NCBI GenBank assembly: GCA_036444275.1
Contig: JAZGAD010000011.1
Span: 1-22,899 of the forward strand
DNA from: Candidatus Hydrothermarchaeales archaeon
Lineage (GTDB): Archaea > Hydrothermarchaeota > Hydrothermarchaeia > Hydrothermarchaeales > JAZGAD01
Reading direction: 5' to 3'
Length of the DNA stretch: 22,899 nucleotides
How positions within the stretch are numbered: the stretch's first letter is position 1; each line of letters opens with the position of its first letter. The notes beneath the pieces are model-generated. The model worked only from the letters and a program-made list of their open reading frames with translations, searched no databases and had not been told where the DNA came from. The position numbers and the translations under genes are program-made. Of this stretch, positions 2,042-10,802 are shown in pieces.

Positions 2042-2757
2042 GCAGCCTGCACTTCCTACTGGATGGCGTATTAAAGGCTATAGAGCTTATGCTCTCCCTT
2101 GATCCATATCTCTTAAGCGCCACTAAGGTGTCCCTGCAAGTCTCAGGAGTAGCGCTGATCCTAAGCACTCTTACAGCTATACCACTCGCAGTCCTAATTG
2201 CCATGAAAGAATTCAGGGGTAAGCGGCTCCTTACCACAATCATAAACAGCAGCATGGGACTTCCACCCGTAGTAGTCGGCCTAGTAGTACTCCTCTTCCT
2301 CATACGATCAGGCCCCCTGGGCTTTCTAGCTTTGTTGTATACTCCTACGGCAATGATCATAGCCCAGTATATCCTAGCTACACCCATAATAACCGGAGTG
2401 GCGATACCGGCAATTAGCAGCGTGGAGAAGAAGATAGGCGAGGTAGCTATCTCCCTTGGAGCAAGCGATTTAGACGTGGCGATTCTTGCTTTAAAAGAGG
2501 CAAAGCTCGGTGTGATTACAGCGATTCTAGCTGGCTTCGGGAGGGCGATAGCCGAGGTTGGATCGGTCTTGATTGTAGGTGGTAATATCGCTTTCTTGGA
2601 AAGGGGACATGAAATATCATATACTAGAACTCTTACCACTGCAATAACAGTGGAGACTAGGAAGGGAGACTTCTCTACAGCTATAGCGCTGGGCATTATA
2701 CTCATCGCTCTAGCATTTCTTGTAAACCTAGCTGTAACACTAGTGAAGGAGAGGTAG
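2038..2757 (+). CDS. tupB: Tungstate ABC transporter permease
   Basis: MGLPPVVVGL, GPLG..LLYTP.AMIIAQ, AGFGRAIAEVGSVLIVGGNI and TRTLTTAI motifs; ATGA overlap with tupA. Confidence 0.92.
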   Translation: MSSLHFLLDGVLKAIELMLSLDPYLLSATKVSLQVSGVALILSTLTAIPLAVLIAMKEFRGKRLLTTIINSSMGLPPVVVGLVVLLFLIRSGPLGFLALLYTPTAMIIAQYILATPIITGVAIPAISSVEKKIGEVAISLGASDLDVAILALKEAKLGVITAILAGFGRAIAEVGSVLIVGGNIAFLERGHEISYTRTLTTAITVETRKGDFSTAIALGIILIALAFLVNLAVTLVKER

Positions 2758-2758
2758 C

Positions 2759-3838
2759 ATGCTTAGGGTAGAAAATCTGTGCAAGAGCTACGATGGAAAA
2801 GAGGTCTTGAAGGGCATAGACTTCGAAGTAGAAAAAGGAGAGATATTCACTATTATAGGGCCAAGCGGTTCTGGAAAGACCACCTTGCTCCGACTGCTTG
2901 ACCTCCTGGATCAGCCCACAAAGGGGAGGATATTCTTCGATGGAGTGGACATAACTGGCAGGCACAATCTGGAGCTCCGGAGAAGAATGGCGATGGTCTT
3001 CCAGGGGGCTCCCATCTTTAACATGAGCGTCTATGACAATGTTGCCTATGGATTAAGGCTAAGGAAAGAGCGGAAAGAGGAGATAGATGGGAAGGTTGAG
3101 AATGCATTGGAATTAGTAGGGCTTATGGGCTACGAAGATAGAAATGCGAAGACCCTCTCAGGCGGAGAAGCGCAAAGAGTAGCATTTGCGATGGCCACTG
3201 TCTTCCAGCCTGAATTGCTCCTTTTAGATGAGCCCACAGCCAACTTAGATCCTATCAATGAAGCTCTGGTGGAGGAAATAATCAGGAGAATAAAGAACTT
3301 GGGAATAACTGTCGTTCTAGCAACACATAAACAGGCAGAGGCAATGGGACTGGCTGACCATGTTGCAGTCTTGAATGAGGGTATGATAGAGCAGTTCGGC
3401 GAGCCAAAGGATATCTTCCATCGACCGAGAACCCTGTTTGTGGCTAGGTTCGTAGGTGCAAGGAACATTCTCCAAGGAAAGGTGGAGCATTCAGATGCAA
3501 GCGATGATAAGACTATTATCGCTATTGAAGATTTCAAGGTAGAGACGCCCTATAGAGCGGTTGAAAAAGGAGCAAGTGTATATTTCTGCATCCGTCCCGA
3601 GGAGGTCATGCTTTTGCGGGAGGATAGGCCTATCACTCCGAGGCACACCAACATACTACAAGGCAGGATATTGGATATACACCCCTTTGGCAGTGCCATG
3701 CTCAGACTAAATGTAAGAGTTAAAGACCTGGATTTCGTAGTAGATATCCCGAGGCATGTGCTTGAAAAAATGGAGTTAAATACCGGAAAAGAAGTCAGGA
3801 TTTCCTTGAAGGCCAGCTCCTGTAATATCCTTGAATGA
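2759..3838 (+). CDS. tupC: Tungstate ABC transporter ATP-binding protein with C-terminal TOBE-like region
   Basis: Walker A GPSGSGKT, signature LSGGEAQR, Walker B LLLLDEPT; C-terminal IRPEEV beta-rich extension; starts 1 bp after tupB. Confidence 0.88.
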   Translation: MLRVENLCKSYDGKEVLKGIDFEVEKGEIFTIIGPSGSGKTTLLRLLDLLDQPTKGRIFFDGVDITGRHNLELRRRMAMVFQGAPIFNMSVYDNVAYGLRLRKERKEEIDGKVENALELVGLMGYEDRNAKTLSGGEAQRVAFAMATVFQPELLLLDEPTANLDPINEALVEEIIRRIKNLGITVVLATHKQAEAMGLADHVAVLNEGMIEQFGEPKDIFHRPRTLFVARFVGARNILQGKVEHSDASDDKTIIAIEDFKVETPYRAVEKGASVYFCIRPEEVMLLREDRPITPRHTNILQGRILDIHPFGSAMLRLNVRVKDLDFVVDIPRHVLEKMELNTGKEVRISLKASSCNILE

Positions 3839-4163: not shown

Positions 4164-5420
4164 TTATGTCCCTATCTCCCAGCTGCTGAGGTACTTCGCC
4201 TGCTCTTTCGTTAGCTTGTCTATCTTTACCCCCATGCTCTCGAGTTTCAGCCTAGCGACTTTCTTGTCGATATATTCTGGGACTGGATATACTTTTGGTT
4301 CGAGCTTCTTCCCTTCGGCCTTGATGTATTCTGCGCACAGAGCTTGATTCGCAAAGCTCATGTCCATGACGCTAGCCGGGTGCCCTTCAGCGGCAGCAAG
4401 GTTGATGAGGCGTCCTTCTCCCAAGAGATAGAGGTGGCGGCCGTCCTTCATGGTGTATTCATCCACGTACTCGCGTATCCTCCGCTTGCCTTTGGACAGC
4501 TCTTCAAGGTCAGGGATATTTATCTCCACGTTGAAGTGACCAGAATTCGCTAGAATTGCACCATCCTTCATAGCCGTGAAGTGCTCCTTCCTAAGGATGC
4601 TCATATCGCCGCTTACCGTGACGAAGATCTCCCCTATACTAGCAGCTTCCTTCATAGGCATAACACGGTAGCCATCCATGACAGCTTCTAGTGCCTTGAG
4701 GGGATCGACTTCGGTGATAATAACGTTTGCCCCCATGCCTTCAGCCCTCATTGCTAGGCCGCGGCCGCACCATCCATAGCCGGAGATTACGAAATTCTTA
4801 CCAGCAAGCAAAATATTAGTAGCCCGTAGTATGCCGTCTATAGTACTCTGCCCAGTGCCGTAGCGATTATCAAAGAAGTGTTTGGTGCTAGCGTCATTTA
4901 CAGCGATCACCGGATAGCGAAGTACACCTTGTTTTTCCATGCTCTGGAACCTTATCACGCCCGTGGTAGTCTCCTCTGTGCCTGCGACTATCCCTTCTAG
5001 GAGTTCCTTCCTATCAGAGTGAATAGTAGATACCAAGTCCCCGCCGTCATCCATGGTGATCTCCGGTTGCATGTCAAGCACCTTGTGAACATGCTTGTAA
5101 TAGGTATCATTATCCTCCCCGTTTATAGCGAAAACGGGTATGCCATAATGTTTTACCAAGGAGGCAGCAACATCGTCCTGCGTACTCAAGGGATTCGAGG
5201 CACATAAAGCCACTTTTGCGCCACCTGCCTTTAAGGCATCAACTAGGTTAGCTGTCTCTGAAGTAACGTGCAGACAGGCCCCTAATTTCAGTCCCGCCAG
5301 GGGTTTTTCCCTCTCGAATCTCTTCTTTATAATGTTCAATACAGGCATCTGCCGAGATGCCCATTCTATCTGTAGCTTCCCCTTCTCTGCTAACTTCAAG
5401 TCCTTTACATCATAATCCAT
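4164..5420 (-). CDS. ahcY: Adenosylhomocysteinase (SAH hydrolase)
   Basis: [49 protein letters not shown] and MDMSFANQ motifs. Confidence 0.98.
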
Positions 5421-5626
5421 AGTTTCACCTTATTTGATTAGATTAAACTCACCAGACCAGCTAAGATAGGTTTAAAGGATTTAAATAAATTTGCCATGGT
5501 TTCTAATGTGAAAATTGAGGACTGAGGAACCTAAATTTTATATAATATATGCTTTCATATTTATCCCGTGGGATGGTGTGATGCCTTCGAATTGCACTAT
5601 ACTATCTCTAATAAAAGGAGGTCCTT

Positions 5627-5902
5627 ATGACGGAGTCCAAGAAGCGTTTTACTACGGAAGAAGCCAAGAGAATAGGCGAGGAAATCGGCATAGATTGGAG
5701 CGAATTCGATGTCGAACAATTTAGGATGGGCATCGACGTTGAACTTGAGCATGGGACGATAGACCCTTCTACTGATGTAACTCACGACGACCCGATAACG
5801 ACCGGCAAAATCGCGCTCGCACACCTAAACGAATTTCCAGACTATTACACGAGACTTGAAAAAATGGAAGAAGAGGCGGAGCGATCCCACAGCGAACACT
5901 AG
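5627..5902 (+). CDS. Conserved hypothetical protein (DUF5661-like)
   Basis: FDVEQFRMGIDVELEHG...TGKIALAHLNEFPDYYTRLEKME; strong AGGAGGT SD. Family name is from recall. Confidence 0.8.
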   Translation: MTESKKRFTTEEAKRIGEEIGIDWSEFDVEQFRMGIDVELEHGTIDPSTDVTHDDPITTGKIALAHLNEFPDYYTRLEKMEEEAERSHSEH

Positions 5903-5940
5903 GATACCCAATAAAGATAGGTCTTGTTTTTGAAAGATAT

Positions 5941-5966
5941 TTCCGCGTGCCCATCCATCGTAACCA
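5941..5966 (+). repeat. Dispersed intergenic repeat, copy A
   Basis: TTCCGCGTGCCCATCCATCGTAACCA; 21/26 identical to 7621-7646 and 20/26 to 8890-8915. Confidence 0.75.
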
Positions 5967-6013
5967 TCGTATTTTGGTTGGTTCATGTCTAAATAATATT
6001 CTGCATGTTAAAA

Positions 6014-6029
6014 TGTAAACATGTTTACA
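6014..6029. promoter_or_regulatory. Perfect 16-bp palindrome, probable vapBC autorepression operator
   Basis: TGTAAACATGTTTACA directly upstream of the antitoxin SD. Confidence 0.7.
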
Positions 6030-6042
6030 AAAGGTGAGAAGT

Positions 6043-6279
6043 TTGAATATAACCATAAGGGATGTAGACGAAAAAGTCTTCAGGAAGTTTAAGGCAGAAG
6101 CGGTAAAAGAGGGCGCACGGCTCGGTAACGCGGTAACGAAGGCGATGAAATTCTGGCTGGATAAGAGGGGAAAAGAAAAGCGCCACAAAAAAAGCCTCGT
6201 GGAATTAAAGTCGTTTGACTGGGGTGCCGGCACCGAAAAAAGCAGCGTAGAAATCAATGAGATACTTTACGGTGGTTAG
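6043..6279 (+). CDS. vapB: Putative VapB antitoxin (ribbon-helix-helix-like)
   Basis: NITIRDVDEKVFRKFKAEA N-terminus and S.EINEILYG C-terminus; abuts the PIN gene. TTG at 6043 follows an AGGTGA SD; the ORF track start GTG 6034 lies within that SD. Confidence 0.8.
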   Translation: MNITIRDVDEKVFRKFKAEAVKEGARLGNAVTKAMKFWLDKRGKEKRHKKSLVELKSFDWGAGTEKSSVEINEILYGG

Positions 6280-6678
6280 ATGGGAGTGTTCATCGACTCC
6301 AGCGTGTTTGTAGCATATTACAACGAACGGGATCTGCACCACAAAGCGTCGGTAGAATTGATAAAGAAATGCGTCGAGGGCGACTTTGGAGAACTCTTCA
6401 CTTCTGACTACGTATTCGACGAGGCAGTTACCGTAACGTTTGTCAAAACTGGCTTGAAAAAAGCGGTTGAACTTGGCCACTATCTATTAAACTCAGAAGT
6501 CTCATTACTTGAAGTCGACAGAGATGCCTTCAACACAGCTTGGGAGAGGTTTAAAAGCGTAGAGATGAGCTTCACCGACTGCACGAATATTGCAGTGATG
6601 AGACTCCATGGAATAGACAAAATTCTAACCTTCGACAGAGGATTCAAACAGGTAAAGGAGATAAAAGTCATACCATAG
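6280..6678 (+). CDS. vapC: PIN-domain VapC toxin (ribonuclease)
   Basis: VFIDSS, VFDEA, SFTDC and LTFDRGF supply the four conserved acidic residues of PIN domains. Confidence 0.92.
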   Translation: MGVFIDSSVFVAYYNERDLHHKASVELIKKCVEGDFGELFTSDYVFDEAVTVTFVKTGLKKAVELGHYLLNSEVSLLEVDRDAFNTAWERFKSVEMSFTDCTNIAVMRLHGIDKILTFDRGFKQVKEIKVIP

Positions 6679-6703
6679 TCGGCCGCCAGATATCTTTAAT
6701 AAT

Positions 6704-7126
6704 ATGATATGCCCAGATACTTCTGAAATGGCAGAAATTGGAAGAGTAAATGTAAAGTTTGGATGGATAGGGATTCTTTTATTCACAATCTTCGGGGGTT
6801 TTCTTGAGATAAAGCTTTTAGATGCGGTCTGGGCTGAGCAGTTCCTTGCACCAACACGTGCGCTATGGAGGTCTGCCCACGTACATGGTCTACTTTTATC
6901 TTTTTACAACCTCTTTTATGGTATCCAAATAGACGGGGCAAACTTAACTGAGCGGGCCAAGCGCGGAGGGAGCGTTCATGCCATAATAGGAGCTATAGTT
7001 CTCCCAATCTCCTTATTCCTCTCTGCTTTTTACTATCCATTGCGCTATCTTGCAGCACTTGGAGGGCTTGCTGTTATTGCGTCTGCCGTTGTTATGGTCA
7101 AAGGGCAGCTTGAACGACGTGATTAA
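6704..7126 (+). CDS. Hypothetical four-helix membrane protein with RSAHVHG motif
   Basis: Four hydrophobic segments; the true start may be ATG 6728 (MAEIG). Confidence 0.7.
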   Translation: MICPDTSEMAEIGRVNVKFGWIGILLFTIFGGFLEIKLLDAVWAEQFLAPTRALWRSAHVHGLLLSFYNLFYGIQIDGANLTERAKRGGSVHAIIGAIVLPISLFLSAFYYPLRYLAALGGLAVIASAVVMVKGQLERRD

Positions 7127-7205
7127 CAACTCATTAACTAACGAGGAGATTAGAGGTAAAGATGTTAGAAAGATCTATCCTATTACAGTAAAGGTGATAA
7201 TATGA
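7127..7205 (+). pseudogene. Possible 3' remnant of a toxin gene (DUF4258/BrnT-like C-terminus)
   Basis: Frame reads NEEIRGKDVRKIYPITVKVII* with TGA (7203-7205) overlapping the next ATG (ATGA); no convincing start. Confidence 0.35.
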
Positions 7206-7555
7206 AAAAAACTTCGAAGGTGTTGCCTTATCCTTGTAGGTGCGGCGGCAAGCTTGTGAAGGCACCGATACACATTGAATACTTCGGGGTGGACTTCGGT
7301 ATTAGGGATGGACATGTCTGTACGGAATGCGGCGATGAATATCTGACCGACGAGATATGGCAGGAGATAGAGGACAAGGCTAAAGAGTTGGGGATCTTCG
7401 GTATCGAGAAGAAAGTTAAGATAAGGAAATCGGGCAACTCACTCGTAGTTACCATACCTCCAGAGATTGCTAAGTACACGGGCATTAAAAAAGAGACTCT
7501 CGTAAGTCTGATACCCTCTGGAAAAGGAAAAATAGAGATCGAAGTAGCAGGGTGA
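7202..7555 (+). CDS. Zn-ribbon (MqsA/YgiT-like) plus AbrB/MazE/SpoVT DNA-binding domain protein, probable antitoxin
   Basis: CRCGG...CTECGDEY zinc ribbon; KIRKSGNSLVVTIPPEI swapped-hairpin motif; AGGTGA SD. Confidence 0.85.
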   Translation: MKKTSKVLPYPCRCGGKLVKAPIHIEYFGVDFGIRDGHVCTECGDEYLTDEIWQEIEDKAKELGIFGIEKKVKIRKSGNSLVVTIPPEIAKYTGIKKETLVSLIPSGKGKIEIEVAG

Positions 7556-7620
7556 GGAAACTCATCATAATCACCTTACGTGGAACATAGACGAGCAGGA
7601 CTCCCTACAATTACAACTGA

Positions 7621-7646
7621 TTCCCCGTGCCCATACATAGAAACCT
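7621..7646 (+). repeat. Dispersed intergenic repeat, copy B
   Basis: TTCCCCGTGCCCATACATAGAAACCT; 21/26 identical to each of copies A and C. Confidence 0.75.
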
Positions 7647-7719
7647 CTGCCAACCACTTCTTTTCAAAAAATACGGCACAGGTTAAAGTTACAAAAGGTT
7701 ACTAAAAGGAGGGTTTAGA

Positions 7720-8223
7720 TTGCCAAAGACATTTCCCGTGCGCCTTACAGAAGCTGGGAGTATAGCCGACACCTTTGAGGTAGTTAAGGACGCCGTGTGG
7801 CAATCCCTGCGGAAGAGTCGAGCTGGCCTCAACCTAGGCATAGCAGAACTAGGTGGACAAGAGAACTTCTTCATCGGGGCCTTTTACCCAGTTGGATCAA
7901 ACATGATAGTGATGAACAAGGCTCCCATCAGGAGGATTCATGAAACGGATTACGCACTCTTCAAGCCCTATTCATTCCATATTCTATTACACGAATACCT
8001 CCATGCTATTGGCTACCTCGATGAGACCACCACTAGGGGGTTAACCCAAAAAATCACTGAGGAGACCCTGGGTGCCAGTCATACTGCAACCCTAATGGCA
8101 AATGATCTATCCGAATATCTTCCGAATCTGGCTTATCCCGAGGTGGGGTGGCAACCCGGTAGCGAACTGATGATAGAATTAGTGCCAGGCTTCGATCGCT
8201 CGAACACCAACTATATAGCTTGA
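7720..8223 (+). CDS. Hypothetical protein with HExxH zincin-like metal-binding motif
   Basis: HILLHEYLHAIGYLDE; TTG start after an AGGAGG SD. Confidence 0.8.
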   Translation: MPKTFPVRLTEAGSIADTFEVVKDAVWQSLRKSRAGLNLGIAELGGQENFFIGAFYPVGSNMIVMNKAPIRRIHETDYALFKPYSFHILLHEYLHAIGYLDETTTRGLTQKITEETLGASHTATLMANDLSEYLPNLAYPEVGWQPGSELMIELVPGFDRSNTNYIA

Positions 8224-8264
8224 TCTAGGAGTTCCTTCTGGAATACGCGTAGAAAAATTTGGGC

Positions 8265-8840
8265 TTATTGTTCAATCGTGACCTTTTCCATCTTGTCCCC
8301 TGCCCTCAAGGACTTAACTATGTCCATCCCTTCAGTTACCTTTCCGAAAACTGCGTATTTTCCGTCTAACATATGTGCTGGCGCCAAGGTCACATAAAAC
8401 TGGCTAGAGGCACTGTTTGGATCCTGCGCGCGCGCCATGGCAACTGCGCCTTCAACATGTTTAAGTTCTGGATCTACTTCCAACAGGATGGTCTTGGCAG
8501 AGCCGCCAGTCCCATCTCCCCGCGGGTCACCCCCTTGGATAACAAATCCCGGTTCGTACCTATGGAATGTTAGGCCGTCATAGAAACCGGATTCCACAAG
8601 CTCGATAAAATTTGCAACGGTGGTCGACGCACGTTTGGCGTATAACTCGAATCTGAATTTCCCCTTGTTCGTTAATATTACCGCGGTTGGATTGTCTGTC
8701 ATTGTTTCACTTCCTTCTTCTAAAACCTCTGCAGAAGAAAATGTCTTTTCATCGATGTTATTAGTTATTTCAGTCTTTGTTTCGCTTCCTATACAACCAG
8801 CTACAAGCATAAGCACAATAAATGCGACGATTATCCTCAT
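8265..8840 (-). CDS. Cyclophilin-type peptidyl-prolyl cis-trans isomerase, predicted lipoprotein
   Basis: [31 protein letters not shown] and YAVFGKV motifs. ATG 8840 gives [16 protein letters not shown] (lipobox) and lies downstream of a BRE/TATA, so it is preferred to the ORF track start 8903. Confidence 0.93.
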
Positions 8841-8865
8841 GCGCACCTCTTTTAACCTATCAGTG

Positions 8866-8880
8866 TTTATAAATCCTTCG
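8866..8880 (-). promoter_or_regulatory. Probable BRE-TATA promoter of the cyclophilin gene
   Basis: Minus strand CGAAGGA-TTTATAAA, about 25 nt upstream of ATG 8840. Confidence 0.5.
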
Positions 8881-8884
8881 AAAT

Positions 8885-8916
8885 TAAGTTTCCGTGCGCC
8901 CATCCACAGAAACCTA
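8885..8916 (+). repeat. Dispersed intergenic repeat, copy C (most symmetric copy)
   Basis: TAAGTTTCCGTG-CGCCCATC-CACAGAAACCTA: 12-bp arms matching 10/12 as inverted repeats around an 8-bp asymmetric spacer. Confidence 0.75.
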
Positions 8917-8946
8917 GAAGTCGGTCATTATCCTGAACGGGTCGAC

Positions 8947-9618
8947 CTACTCGACTCCCATCTCGTTGAGGAATGCCATAGCAGCACCGTTTACGTCCTT
9001 GGCGCAGGTTATAGCCCTTCCGACAACGAGGATGTCTGCTTGAGAGGCAAGGGCTTCCTTCACTTTTGGCACTTTGATTCCACCTGCAACTGCCACAGGG
9101 CCTCCGCCTAATGCATCCTTTATTTGAGGAATGTTGCCCCACTGGTGCTCGGCGTCGGTTAGCTCCAGGTCAATGGCCCTATGGAGCTCGACAATATCGG
9201 GCTTGACTCTTAACTGATTTAATACATTGATGGGGTCGTGGAGGCTGATGGTGTCCAACAGCGCCAAGACGCCCACCTTGTGGCATTCCTCGATGAACTC
9301 CTCTTGTGTCTCGATGGGAGCAACACCTGCGAATGCCGCCACATCAGCCTTGGCTTTACCTGCTATCTTGGCCTCTCGTTTTCCTGAGCTGAGTGTCTTC
9401 AAGTCGGCCAGCACCACGGACTCGGGCGTGATTTGGTGGATTTTCTCAATCACCTCCACGCCGTACCTCTTGATCAATGGGGTTCCTGCCTCTATGATAA
9501 TGGCATTATGTCTAGGCAGGGCCCTGATGATGCCCTCGACCCTCCTCCAGTCCGGGATGTCGAAGGCCACCTCTAAGTAGGGTGGGTTCTTCAGTAGGTC
9601 CTTTTTGGATTCCGTCAT
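8947..9618 (-). CDS. hps: Stand-alone 3-hexulose-6-phosphate synthase domain (OMPDC/HUMPS family), duplicate of the Fae-Hps C-terminal domain
   Basis: VAFD, IEAGTPLIK, ADLKTL, ELHRAID, VAGG and VVGRAIT motifs; collinear with residues ~175-380 of the upstream fusion; the ancestral tail continues past the TAG to 8914. Confidence 0.9.
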   Translation of the reverse strand: MTESKKDLLKNPPYLEVAFDIPDWRRVEGIIRALPRHNAIIIEAGTPLIKRYGVEVIEKIHQITPESVVLADLKTLSSGKREAKIAGKAKADVAAFAGVAPIETQEEFIEECHKVGVLALLDTISLHDPINVLNQLRVKPDIVELHRAIDLELTDAEHQWGNIPQIKDALGGGPVAVAGGIKVPKVKEALASQADILVVGRAITCAKDVNGAAMAFLNEMGVE

Positions 9619-9629
9619 TGCCTTTTCCT

Positions 9630-10802
9630 CTAAAAGTCGGTCATTACCCTGAACTGGTCGACCTCATAAACTCCCATCTCGTTGAGGAATGCCATTGCAG
9701 TGCCGTGAACGTTCTTGGCACTGGTGATGGCCTTACCGACCACAAGGATGTCCGCACCCGAAGCCAAGGTTTCCTTGATCTTCGGCACCTCAATCCCGCC
9801 AGCCACGGCCACTAGGGTGTTGCCTCCACAGGCCTTTTTTATCCCCTGAACCAGCTTCTGGTCGGGAATCCCCTGGAGCTCGACGATATTGGGTTTTAAG
9901 CGCAGCTGCTTGATTACTTCCACCGGGTCAGGCAGATTGATGGTGTCCATGAGGGCTAAAGCGCCCACTTTGAGGCACTCTTCTATGAACCTCTCCATGG
10001 TCTTTAGGGGCGCCCGCCCCGAGAATGATATGACATCTGCCGTGGCATCCCCTGCCATTCTGGCCTCCAAGTTCCCGGTATCCAGGGTTTTCATGTCCGC
10101 GATGACTATAGATTCTGGCCTAATCTGATGAATCTTCTGGCAGACCTCCACACCGTACCTCTTGATTAGAGGAGTCCCGGCCTTGATTATGATTGCATCC
10201 TTTCTCGGAAGGGACTTGAGGATGCCCTCAGCCCGCCTCCAGTCATCAGTTTCGAGGGCTACCCCAAGGTACGGGGGCATCGCTAGATTGTTTATCCTGA
10301 ATCCTATCATGTCATGCGTCGACTTATCTTTTTCCTCTAAAACCTTATCGATGCATGGGAACTTATTTATAGCCCGTCTAAGGGCAAGCTTTGTGGCTCC
10401 ATAATTATACCTATATATCCGCTGGTAGTCCTTGGCACGGGGATGGATGAAAACCGAGACGATGACCGCTAGGTCTTCCACTGAGTCTTTGGGGATGACC
10501 CCCTCCTCGACCACATCCACGACTGCCTTCGCCACAGCACTCTGCGCAGGGCCAAATATCCTCTCTGCGCCCTCAAGGTCCTTTATGGTTACCTTTGGCA
10601 CGATGAGCGTAGTTGGCTTAACTGGAAGATTGGGCCGAACCACAGCTAGGATGGGGGTATGTCCCATTCTGGGCTGGGCCAGTGAACTGGCAAACGCTTG
10701 GCCGACAGGTCCATTCTTCTTACCAACAACTAAGTCTATATGAGCGATTTCTGGCATCTCCCCTACAAGGGCCTCCCCTACCAAAAAATCGTTGTCAGTC
10801 AT
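9630..10802 (-). CDS. fae-hps: Formaldehyde-activating enzyme / hexulose-6-phosphate synthase fusion with a degenerate Hps active site
   Basis: Fae domain: GEALVG, AHIDL, GHTP, PKVTI, FGPAQSAVAKAV, YRYNYGAT. Hps domain: DMKTLDTGNLEA, AVAGG and C-terminal DQFRVMTDF. Confidence 0.95.
   Translation of the reverse strand: MTDNDFLVGEALVGEMPEIAHIDLVVGKKNGPVGQAFASSLAQPRMGHTPILAVVRPNLPVKPTTLIVPKVTIKDLEGAERIFGPAQSAVAKAVVDVVEEGVIPKDSVEDLAVIVSVFIHPRAKDYQRIYRYNYGATKLALRRAINKFPCIDKVLEEKDKSTHDMIGFRINNLAMPPYLGVALETDDWRRAEGILKSLPRKDAIIIKAGTPLIKRYGVEVCQKIHQIRPESIVIADMKTLDTGNLEARMAGDATADVISFSGRAPLKTMERFIEECLKVGALALMDTINLPDPVEVIKQLRLKPNIVELQGIPDQKLVQGIKKACGGNTLVAVAGGIEVPKIKETLASGADILVVGKAITSAKNVHGTAMAFLNEMGVYEVDQFRVMTDF

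Follow-up and report, generated by a model that had tools for sequence, protein, structure and literature searches.

Toxin-antitoxin (TA) pairs are among the most mobile of prokaryotic genes, yet they carry no mobility gene, and to our knowledge the way in which they move is poorly understood. Chromosomal integron arrays often carry such pairs, each with a promoter of its own. In the current study a 26-bp repeat (the 26-mer) was analysed that occurs three times, in direct orientation and beside TA genes, in a 22,899-nt stretch of DNA from a Candidatus Hydrothermarchaeales archaeon. This stretch, the window of the analysis, is an entire 22.9-kb contig (C11) of its genome.

The described systems closest to such an arrangement are integron arrays, dif modules and units that insert with long target duplications. 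Integrons, which are also known from archaea, and clusters of attC sites lacking integron-integrases (CALINs) are recognised by at least two attC sites in one orientation and less than 4 kb apart, as set out by Ghaly et al. 2022 (PMC9668308). The pdif sites of Acinetobacter plasmids are described as 28 bp long (11-6-11), with conserved XerC/XerD arms and variable spacers, the sites that bound a module being inversely oriented (PMC13141974). Selfish restriction-modification units are reported to insert with a long target duplication (Furuta, Abe and Kobayashi 2010, PMC2853133). In the available portions of the literature on Hydrothermarchaeota toxin-antitoxin systems, or on archaeal vapBC with direct repeats, no description of the 26-mer was found.

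The 26-mer is a real, rare and sequence-specific repeat that stands at the edges of roaming, TA-rich gene modules. It is read here, tentatively and with slightly less than even confidence, as a portable att-type junction marking the ends of small roaming modules, mainly TA pairs, in a few Hydrothermarchaeales genomes.

A small and rare repeat family

The three copies in the window (A, B and C, starting at 5941, 7621 and 8890) share one orientation, are spaced 1680 nt (A-B) and 1269 nt (B-C) apart, and have 18 of 26 positions in common by our count; the coordinates, letters and spacings given for them in the initial annotation were all reproduced. A degenerate pattern allowing up to 3 mismatches finds exactly these three in the window, against a chance expectation of 0.01, and none of 100 shuffled sequences held three or more. 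The genome to which the window belongs (G000; 1.49 Mb, 61 contigs) was compared with a set of 38 species genomes of the class Hydrothermarchaeia (35 for the order). Those that carry the repeat are metagenome-assembled genomes (MAGs), all incomplete: G000 is 81% complete, G009 96% and G022 88%. The weight-matrix scan of genome and relatives that had initially been proposed found five sites in G000 at 34-40 bits, namely A, B, C and two others, D (C23:14777) and E (C6:14130). Below these the scores dropped to 19.4 and 18.9, a level also attained in three shuffled genomes (18.8-22.0). A profile built from all nine copies, run against the 38 class genomes, returned the same nine at E <=0.05, so that the family is small and rare, with nine copies in 3 of 38 genomes: five in G000, one in G009 and three diverged ones in G022. 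Six weaker matches (E 0.09-0.49) are at noise level, and five of these lie inside long open reading frames (ORFs). The G009 copy came from pattern searches of the 35 order and 38 class genomes, which gave no control matches in the carrier genomes, and the three G022 copies were found by aligning homologous flanks. With filters off, no extra copy appeared in the window or in seven related loci. Searches of public genome, metagenome and viral collections with the exact pattern returned only G009's own record and two bacterial ORF matches, with none from the viral set; the two outside matches were taken as chance, one falling in an ORF of 321 aa in a Peregrinibacteria MAG and the other in an ORF of 337 aa on a contig of bacterial type.

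Similarity among the copies is star-like, with pairwise identities of 18-22/26, and has sharp edges, stopping within about -10 to +30 nt of the repeat. The information content is ~41 bits uncorrected, or ~32 bits after small-sample correction, and 19 bits suffice to specify five sites. Star-like similarity, sharply bounded edges and information content together favour an extended, specific site, copied or selected as one piece; with ~41 bits where 19 are needed, the copies look like an extended, specific recognition sequence or the product of copying, and not like a short operator that evolved in situ. Five of the six well-kept copies have the same central GCCCAT, which is altered in D and in all three copies of G022. 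In the 12-8-12 reading the arms of copy C match at 10/12, making it the most symmetric copy, and A and B are less so, just as the initial annotation described; in a 9-8-9 reading the arms of C match at 8/9 and those of A and B at fewer positions. Eight copies folded as single-stranded DNA gave minimum free energies of 0 to -3.6 kcal/mol (z -0.5 to +1.3), with no hairpin.

Gene modules and homology breakpoints at the repeat

For seven of the nine copies a TA gene is found no more than 200 nt away; these copies occur both upstream and downstream of the operon, and four TA families are involved (the neighbours are vapBC, the Zn-ribbon/AbrB antitoxin, PIN_3, ParE/RelE and HicB; Table 1), and the remaining two adjoin a cyclophilin gene. 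The repeat therefore accompanies TA cargo at other loci and in other genomes, as would be expected from the initial reading of the window. Since G000 holds at least 21 PF01850 and 7 PF05016 matches, most of its TA loci are without a copy. By a crude definition of intergenic DNA, only about 6% of it is no further than 600 nt from one of the 29 TA matches listed; of four independent G000 loci, counting A and B as one, three are TA-adjacent, for which our own estimate of the chance probability is of the order of 1e-3. The flanks of the 23S rRNA/relBE locus at E are uninformative in relatives, where rRNA ends coincide with contig ends. Beside copy D, a stretch of 325 nt (G000:C23:14803-15127) before a nitroreductase gene has no convincing ORF, which is unusual in this compact genome.

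In the window the repeats lie in an accessory patch next to hps. Pfam and homologues agree with the initial description of interval A-B as vapBC, a membrane protein, a toxin remnant and an antitoxin, and the HExxH protein and cyclophilin of interval B-C were likewise confirmed; at E 1e-3 the other G000 contigs show no similarity to the patch. The gene order orf10795-fae-hps-hps is conserved across the order and the region past hps is variable, even G013 and G020, of the same genus, differing there. Module order also changes, from HExxH-vapBC-hps in G020 to vapBC...HExxH-cyclophilin-hps in G000. The genes found past hps in the relatives mark the hps end as a strain-variable insertion hotspot.

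The break in synteny predicted at the motif was found: block homology with other genomes ends at or inside the repeat. When G000 is aligned with G022, homology of the vapBC block runs from the left edge of A to the vapC stop, and that of the cyclophilin block spans the promoter and the left two-thirds of C and stops in its right half. The vapBC DNA of the two genomes is 88-89% identical, compared with ~73% for the S-adenosylhomocysteine hydrolase (SAHH) gene and ~70% for fae-hps of G022's genus. The vapBC of G022 has one copy on each side, both with the same orientation, and is located between an AIR-synthase-like gene and tldD. The same gap in G009 (L076, C15, 338-1500) holds an unrelated PIN/antitoxin pair on the other strand, and this gap is a second TA hotspot. 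The PIN_3 pair beside D has counterparts in G013, G024 and G010 that match it at 72-77%, the match reaching to ~20 nt before D; these three genomes have no copy of the repeat beside their PIN_3 pair. Around copy B, 125 nt show no match either to the antitoxin block of G004, G009 and G012 or to the HExxH promoter of G020.

An att-type junction is consistent with the placing of copies at block ends, on both sides of vapBC in G022 and in a co-oriented row in the window. By this mechanism a module would leave as a circle bearing one copy of the repeat and would enter by crossover with a resident copy, leaving direct repeats on both sides, and successive entries would build a row such as A-B-C beside hps. 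The crossover region would be GCCCAT in a 9-8-9 layout, and we infer that the enzyme would act in trans. A more far-reaching proposal, possible but rather doubtful, is that a hairpin-less, sequence-defined 26-bp attachment site constitutes an archaeal chromosomal gene-cassette system, through which TA and stress genes would be exchanged between hotspots (the hps end, the pre-tldD gap, the rRNA operon end) and between Hydrothermarchaeales families. Its recombinase, supplied in trans, would have to be of an unrecognised kind, because one carrier genome has no recognised tyrosine, serine or Y1 recombinase. Of the cassette or module system suggested at the outset, the block ends, the TA cargo and the hotspot were recovered; membership of the pdif/Xer modules, a recombinase and an excision joint were not.

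The end of hps beside copy C is decayed. In the region 8914-8949 the present stop is a TAG in place of a Tyr codon of the Fae-Hps tail, behind which ten more codons survive before a further stop; relatives such as G020 have a similar decayed tail in another frame. The ten-codon tail still matches the Fae-Hps C-terminus and copy C abuts its closing TAG, which makes the initial view, that C overlaps the ancestral hps stop, a reasonable one. The rest of the window has ordinary chromosomal content: a binding-protein-dependent ATP-binding cassette (ABC) transporter, SAHH, Fae-Hps, Hps, a thioredoxin-reductase-like enzyme, pyridoxal phosphate (PLP) enzymes, and a PadR regulator with an ABC export set. 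No tRNA or known RNA family was found in it.

Table 1. Features of the accessory patch and its flanks (window coordinates), repeat copies at other loci, and genes found past hps in relatives
Feature	Position	Strand	Remarks
DUF5661 gene, left neighbour of patch	5627..5902	+	Pfam PF18905, E 2e-25
Repeat copy A	5941-5966	+	Left edge of vapBC block, 76 nt upstream of vapB TTG start
Perfect 16-bp palindrome, vapB promoter	6014..6029		Also at homologous places in G010, G018, G020, G022
vapB, ribbon-helix-helix (RHH) antitoxin	6043-6279	+	Pfam; TTG start
vapC, PIN toxin	6280-6678	+	Pfam
Membrane ORF	6704..7126	+	No Pfam match; stands alone in G029, G027
Toxin gene 3' remnant (last ~60 nt)	7143..7205	+	Intact gene precedes antitoxin in G009, G004, G012
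Zn-ribbon + AbrB/MazE-type antitoxin	7202..7555	+	PF04014, PF24292 below curated cut-offs; homologues in G004, G009, G012
Repeat copy B	7621-7646	+	65 nt after Zn-ribbon/AbrB antitoxin, 73 nt before HExxH gene
HExxH ORF	7720..8223	+	No Pfam family; other side of vapBC in G020
Cyclophilin-type peptidyl-prolyl isomerase (PPIase), signal or lipobox-like N-terminus	8265..8840	-	PF00160, E 1e-44; start set from homologues
Repeat copy C	8890-8915	+	Between cyclophilin promoter and decayed hps tail; 49 nt before cyclophilin start
Decayed hps C-terminal tail behind present stop	8914..8946	-	Old TAG overlaps end of copy C
hps	8947-9618	-	Conserved anchor beside variable blocks across the order
fae-hps	9630-10802	-	Conserved anchor, with hps, across the order
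Repeat copy D	C23:14777		58 nt before antitoxin of PIN_3 pair
Repeat copy E	C6:14130		11 nt after ParE/RelE toxin stop, 117 nt after 23S rRNA 3' end
Repeat copy in G009			194 nt from hicB, 22 nt after stop of membrane-protein gene; convergent gene
Repeat copy G022a			~75 nt before vapB
Repeat copy G022b			~5 nt after vapC stop; 155 nt upstream of tldD
Repeat copy G022c			Between divergent cyclophilin and DnaJ-domain genes
Past hps: vapBC, convergent			G010, G017, G018, G020
Past hps: cyclophilin			G013, G006; 1.3 kb away in G008
Past hps: other genes			G003

Objections and competing explanations

Several observations weigh against an att-type junction. The sample is small, nine copies in three genomes, and amounts to about five independent loci since A/G022a and C/G022c are homologous pairs. 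The patch comprises at least five separately roaming gene units and the repeat is present at only three of its six junctions, being absent between vapC and the membrane ORF, between the membrane ORF and the toxin remnant, and between the HExxH and cyclophilin genes; the claim that the repeats divide the patch into modules thus stands for the edges of homology that fall at the repeat and lapses at the other junctions. Copies D, E and that of G009 have no partner across the module, and the G009 copy lies 85 nt beyond a different 26-nt duplication that belongs to hicAB itself. Copy A and its G022 counterpart agree at 16/26 positions inside the repeat, the flanking promoter at ~82-88%. The dyad is weak, consensus arms in the 9-8-9 reading matching at 6/9.

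The same direction is indicated by the searches for an enzyme. No recombinase domain was found in the window with Pfam, in agreement with the initial annotation, and the idea that copies might lie near xerA or integrase genes failed, since no copy is near a recombinase gene and none is common to the carriers. G000 has two tyrosine recombinases (PF00589), an interrupted Xer-like gene and the integrase of an integrated element; the integrase is absent from the other motif-bearing genomes, neither gene is close to a copy, and no integron-like array was seen around either of them. G009, at 96% completeness, has no PF00589, PF00239 or PF01797 match, and the eight tyrosine-recombinase genes of G022 are all on contigs without a copy. 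With these three families no recombinase common to the three carrier genomes was found, nor was a transposase common to them. The Xer-like gene of G000 (C10:46762-47779) is spread over two overlapping frames with an internal TAG, which reflects either a disrupted gene or a fault of assembly. In G009, G017 and G025, with completeness of 86-96%, no PF00589 match was obtained at E 0.001; if true, these archaea are without an Xer-type dimer resolvase.

Excision is a further difficulty, as the A-B or B-C junctions for which the initial annotation had suggested looking were not seen: no copy-to-copy joint is present in the contigs of four public runs, contigs being prone to drop rare variants. Copy B is bridged in contigs of two public runs with the arrangement unchanged, and B and C likewise in related strains. 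In run X1 no contig listed covers 5921-5990; its contigs match 5169-5920 followed by 146 unlike letters, and 5991-6402 with 86 unlike letters on the left, which may be a strain difference at copy A and from which nothing is drawn here.

An unlikely alternative is that the 26-mer is the operator of a transcription factor governing a small stress and proteostasis set, and travels as part of the promoter. The candidate set would be vapBC, the PIN TA pair, the HExxH protein and cyclophilin, joined in G022 by tldD and the divergent DnaJ-domain gene; G022c does lie between the divergent cyclophilin and DnaJ-domain genes, and G022b upstream of tldD. Copies A, B, C, D, G022a and G022c each have, at 14-23 nt, a TATA-like run that precedes a gene, and the weak GTTTC-N16-GAAAC dyad means that either orientation could work. 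In the closest relative, G001 (L044, C1, ~740-765), the interval between the TATA box and the start of cyclophilin contains a 14-nt exact match to the right half of the repeat. Against an operator, the copies keep neither a set position nor a set orientation at promoters of a coherent group of genes: relative to their genes A and B point forward and C and D in reverse, and the spacings come to 41, 35, 16 and 19 nt when measured from the TATA boxes 25-30 nt upstream of the starts, if those are the real ones. Copy E, behind the relE stop and facing the 23S rRNA end, has no gene to control, and the G009 copy stands behind a convergent gene. The mixed orientation, the variable spacing and these two copies without a downstream gene weaken the transcription-factor site that had been offered as an alternative at the outset. 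The repeat is also rare for an operator (five sites in the genome, 3 of 38 genomes), its information about twice what a regulon would need, and the vapB promoter is conserved without it in G010, G017, G018 and G020. TA operons of the four families are as a rule under the control of their own antitoxins. The palindrome in the vapB promoter (6014..6029), conserved across families and also in relatives without the 26-mer, is probably the VapB operator. The 14-nt match in G001 extends into the flank of copy C and has the opposite orientation relative to the cyclophilin gene.

Just as improbable is that the copies are passive scars of insertions with local target duplication, A, B and C being worn copies of the sequence that followed hps, with no present function. 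This has a real counterpart in the relatives, where TA pairs are bracketed by duplicated local target. Beyond vapBC a second hps 3' end is present in G010 (L013, C72, 1053-1247; ~220 nt with a 60-nt internal gap), G017 (L021, C101; 52/53 nt) and G018 (L014, C110; 13/13 nt), and in G009 hicAB (L023, C11) lies between 26-nt direct repeats (131-156 and 693-718, matching at 25/26) that include the end of the upstream ORF; its hicA has an in-frame TAG. These comparisons show TA pairs of this order entering at gene ends and leaving direct repeats, a pattern like that reported for restriction-modification units with long target duplication (PMC2853133); the hps-end duplications would represent insertion with a variable target duplication, or else integration by homology. 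That copy C abuts the old hps stop agrees with scars of this kind. The 26-mer itself is not a target duplication, because it recurs at two unlinked loci of G000 and in two other genomes with unrelated flanks, because the patch holds no hps remnant, and because A, B and C, at 20-21/26, are no more alike mutually than each is to the G009 copy (21-22/26). A duplicated target would be unique to its locus, as are the hps repeats of G010, G017 and G018 and as the 26-mer is not, and no empty site for the 26-mer was found. The initial alternative of repeated integration at one attachment site therefore gains from the hps duplications of relatives and loses on the 26-mer, with its copies at unlinked loci.

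Least probable, and very unlikely, is that the 26-mer is a tiny repeat that moves or is copied by itself, or a target favoured by some unknown element, and that it accumulates in dispensable intergenic DNA by accessory genes. The sharp edges of similarity and the half-repeat match in G001 would suit this reading, and the G013 site homologous to D reads as though ~21 nt of repeat were absent between two TAG triplets, a single comparison that may be chance; the copies have no terminal inverted repeats, no hairpin in the eight that were folded and no partner end, number only nine, and share no transposase.

Other identities for the repeat were rejected. A miniature inverted-repeat transposable element (MITE) or insertion sequence (IS) end, named initially as an alternative, is refuted by the lack of any reverse-strand copy on copy-bearing contigs, and so of an inverted terminal pair, and by similarity confined to the repeat. 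CRISPR repeats do not suit a spacing of 1.3-1.7 kb with genes between, and no array of the 26-mer was seen in 38 genomes or three public collections; nor was there a match to a tRNA or known RNA family. A coding origin (+ frame F-x-V-P-I-H-R-N with synonymous changes) was dropped, no copy lying in an intact ORF. In the six well-kept copies 7 of 8 third positions of that frame vary, against 7 of 18 others (CGT/AGA, ATC/ATA, CAT/CAC), a skew of p ~0.03 by a rough estimate made before frame correction, and the back-translated pattern matched only repeat copies in the 38 genomes. Derivation from the hps 3' end was discarded, since local alignment of patch and hps scored 21 and shuffled sequences a mean of 21.5 (maximum 27); a gapped likeness of the repeat to relatives' hps ends is seen by eye. 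An origin recognition box was set aside: orc1 lies on C23 ~8 kb from D, and the gap upstream of orc1 holds short dyads of another form, of 12-14 nt. This 540-nt gap upstream of orc1/cdc6 (L129, G000:C23:20000-27000, 2667-3203), with TTCCA...TGGAAA-type dyads at 2699-2712 and 2901-2914 and a 30-nt repeat pair, is probably the replication origin; polD and radB follow orc1.

With an att-type junction as the favoured explanation, one archaeal order would show two footprints of TA movement side by side, variable local duplications and a portable 26-bp junction. If the 26-mer is a true crossover site it offers a simple, testable archaeal cassette system, distinct from integrons and dif modules; were it a regulator's site, the genes beside it would form a small regulon of accessory stress functions. 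In both cases gene flux in these uncultured deep-sea archaea can usefully be followed at the hps end and in the tldD gap, which serve as natural markers.

Relation to integrons, dif modules and other systems

The resemblance to integron arrays and CALINs, as delimited by Ghaly et al. 2022 (PMC9668308), lies in co-oriented sites less than 4 kb apart (here 1680 and 1269 nt) that separate small accessory units, and in the fact that a CALIN needs no adjacent integrase. The difference lies in the site: attC is defined there by single-strand fold-back, and the 26-mer is not an attC because its eight folded copies do no better than shuffled sequence. What is conserved here is sequence and not structure, the units are multi-gene and of mixed orientation, and single copies occur elsewhere.

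The pdif modules described in PMC13141974 are similar in that sites of ~26-28 bp bound small modules that shuffle between replicons and carry TA cargo, for example higBA. In the archaeal chromosome, by contrast, the sites are direct (A-B-C and the G022 pair), conservation is concentrated in the centre with variable arms, and no Xer-type recombinase is seen in at least one of the carriers (G009). Membership of the pdif/Xer modules, raised by the layout of the sites, accordingly fails, the likeness of layout coming down to a weak dyad. Compared more generally with loxP, FRT and dif-type sites, the crossover region is identical in five of six well-kept copies (GCCCAT, from which D and the G022 copies depart), and a cognate recombinase was not found in the window or the carrier genomes, which are incomplete MAGs.

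Units with long target duplication, as reported by Furuta, Abe and Kobayashi 2010 (PMC2853133), share with the vapBC of G010, G017 and G018 and the hicAB of G009 the form of an addiction-type unit without a mobility gene, bracketed by direct repeats; their repeat is unique to its locus, unlike the 26-mer, which recurs at unlinked loci and in other genomes. Integrase elements with attL and attR are comparable in that direct repeats flank an insert at a gene end (here hps, the 23S rRNA gene and a membrane-protein gene), and differ in that no integrase is present in or near the modules, which are only 0.8-1.7 kb in size, and in that several sites stand in a row. By analogy, the repeat would work most like an integron cassette array or a set of dif modules, while having the defining features of neither.

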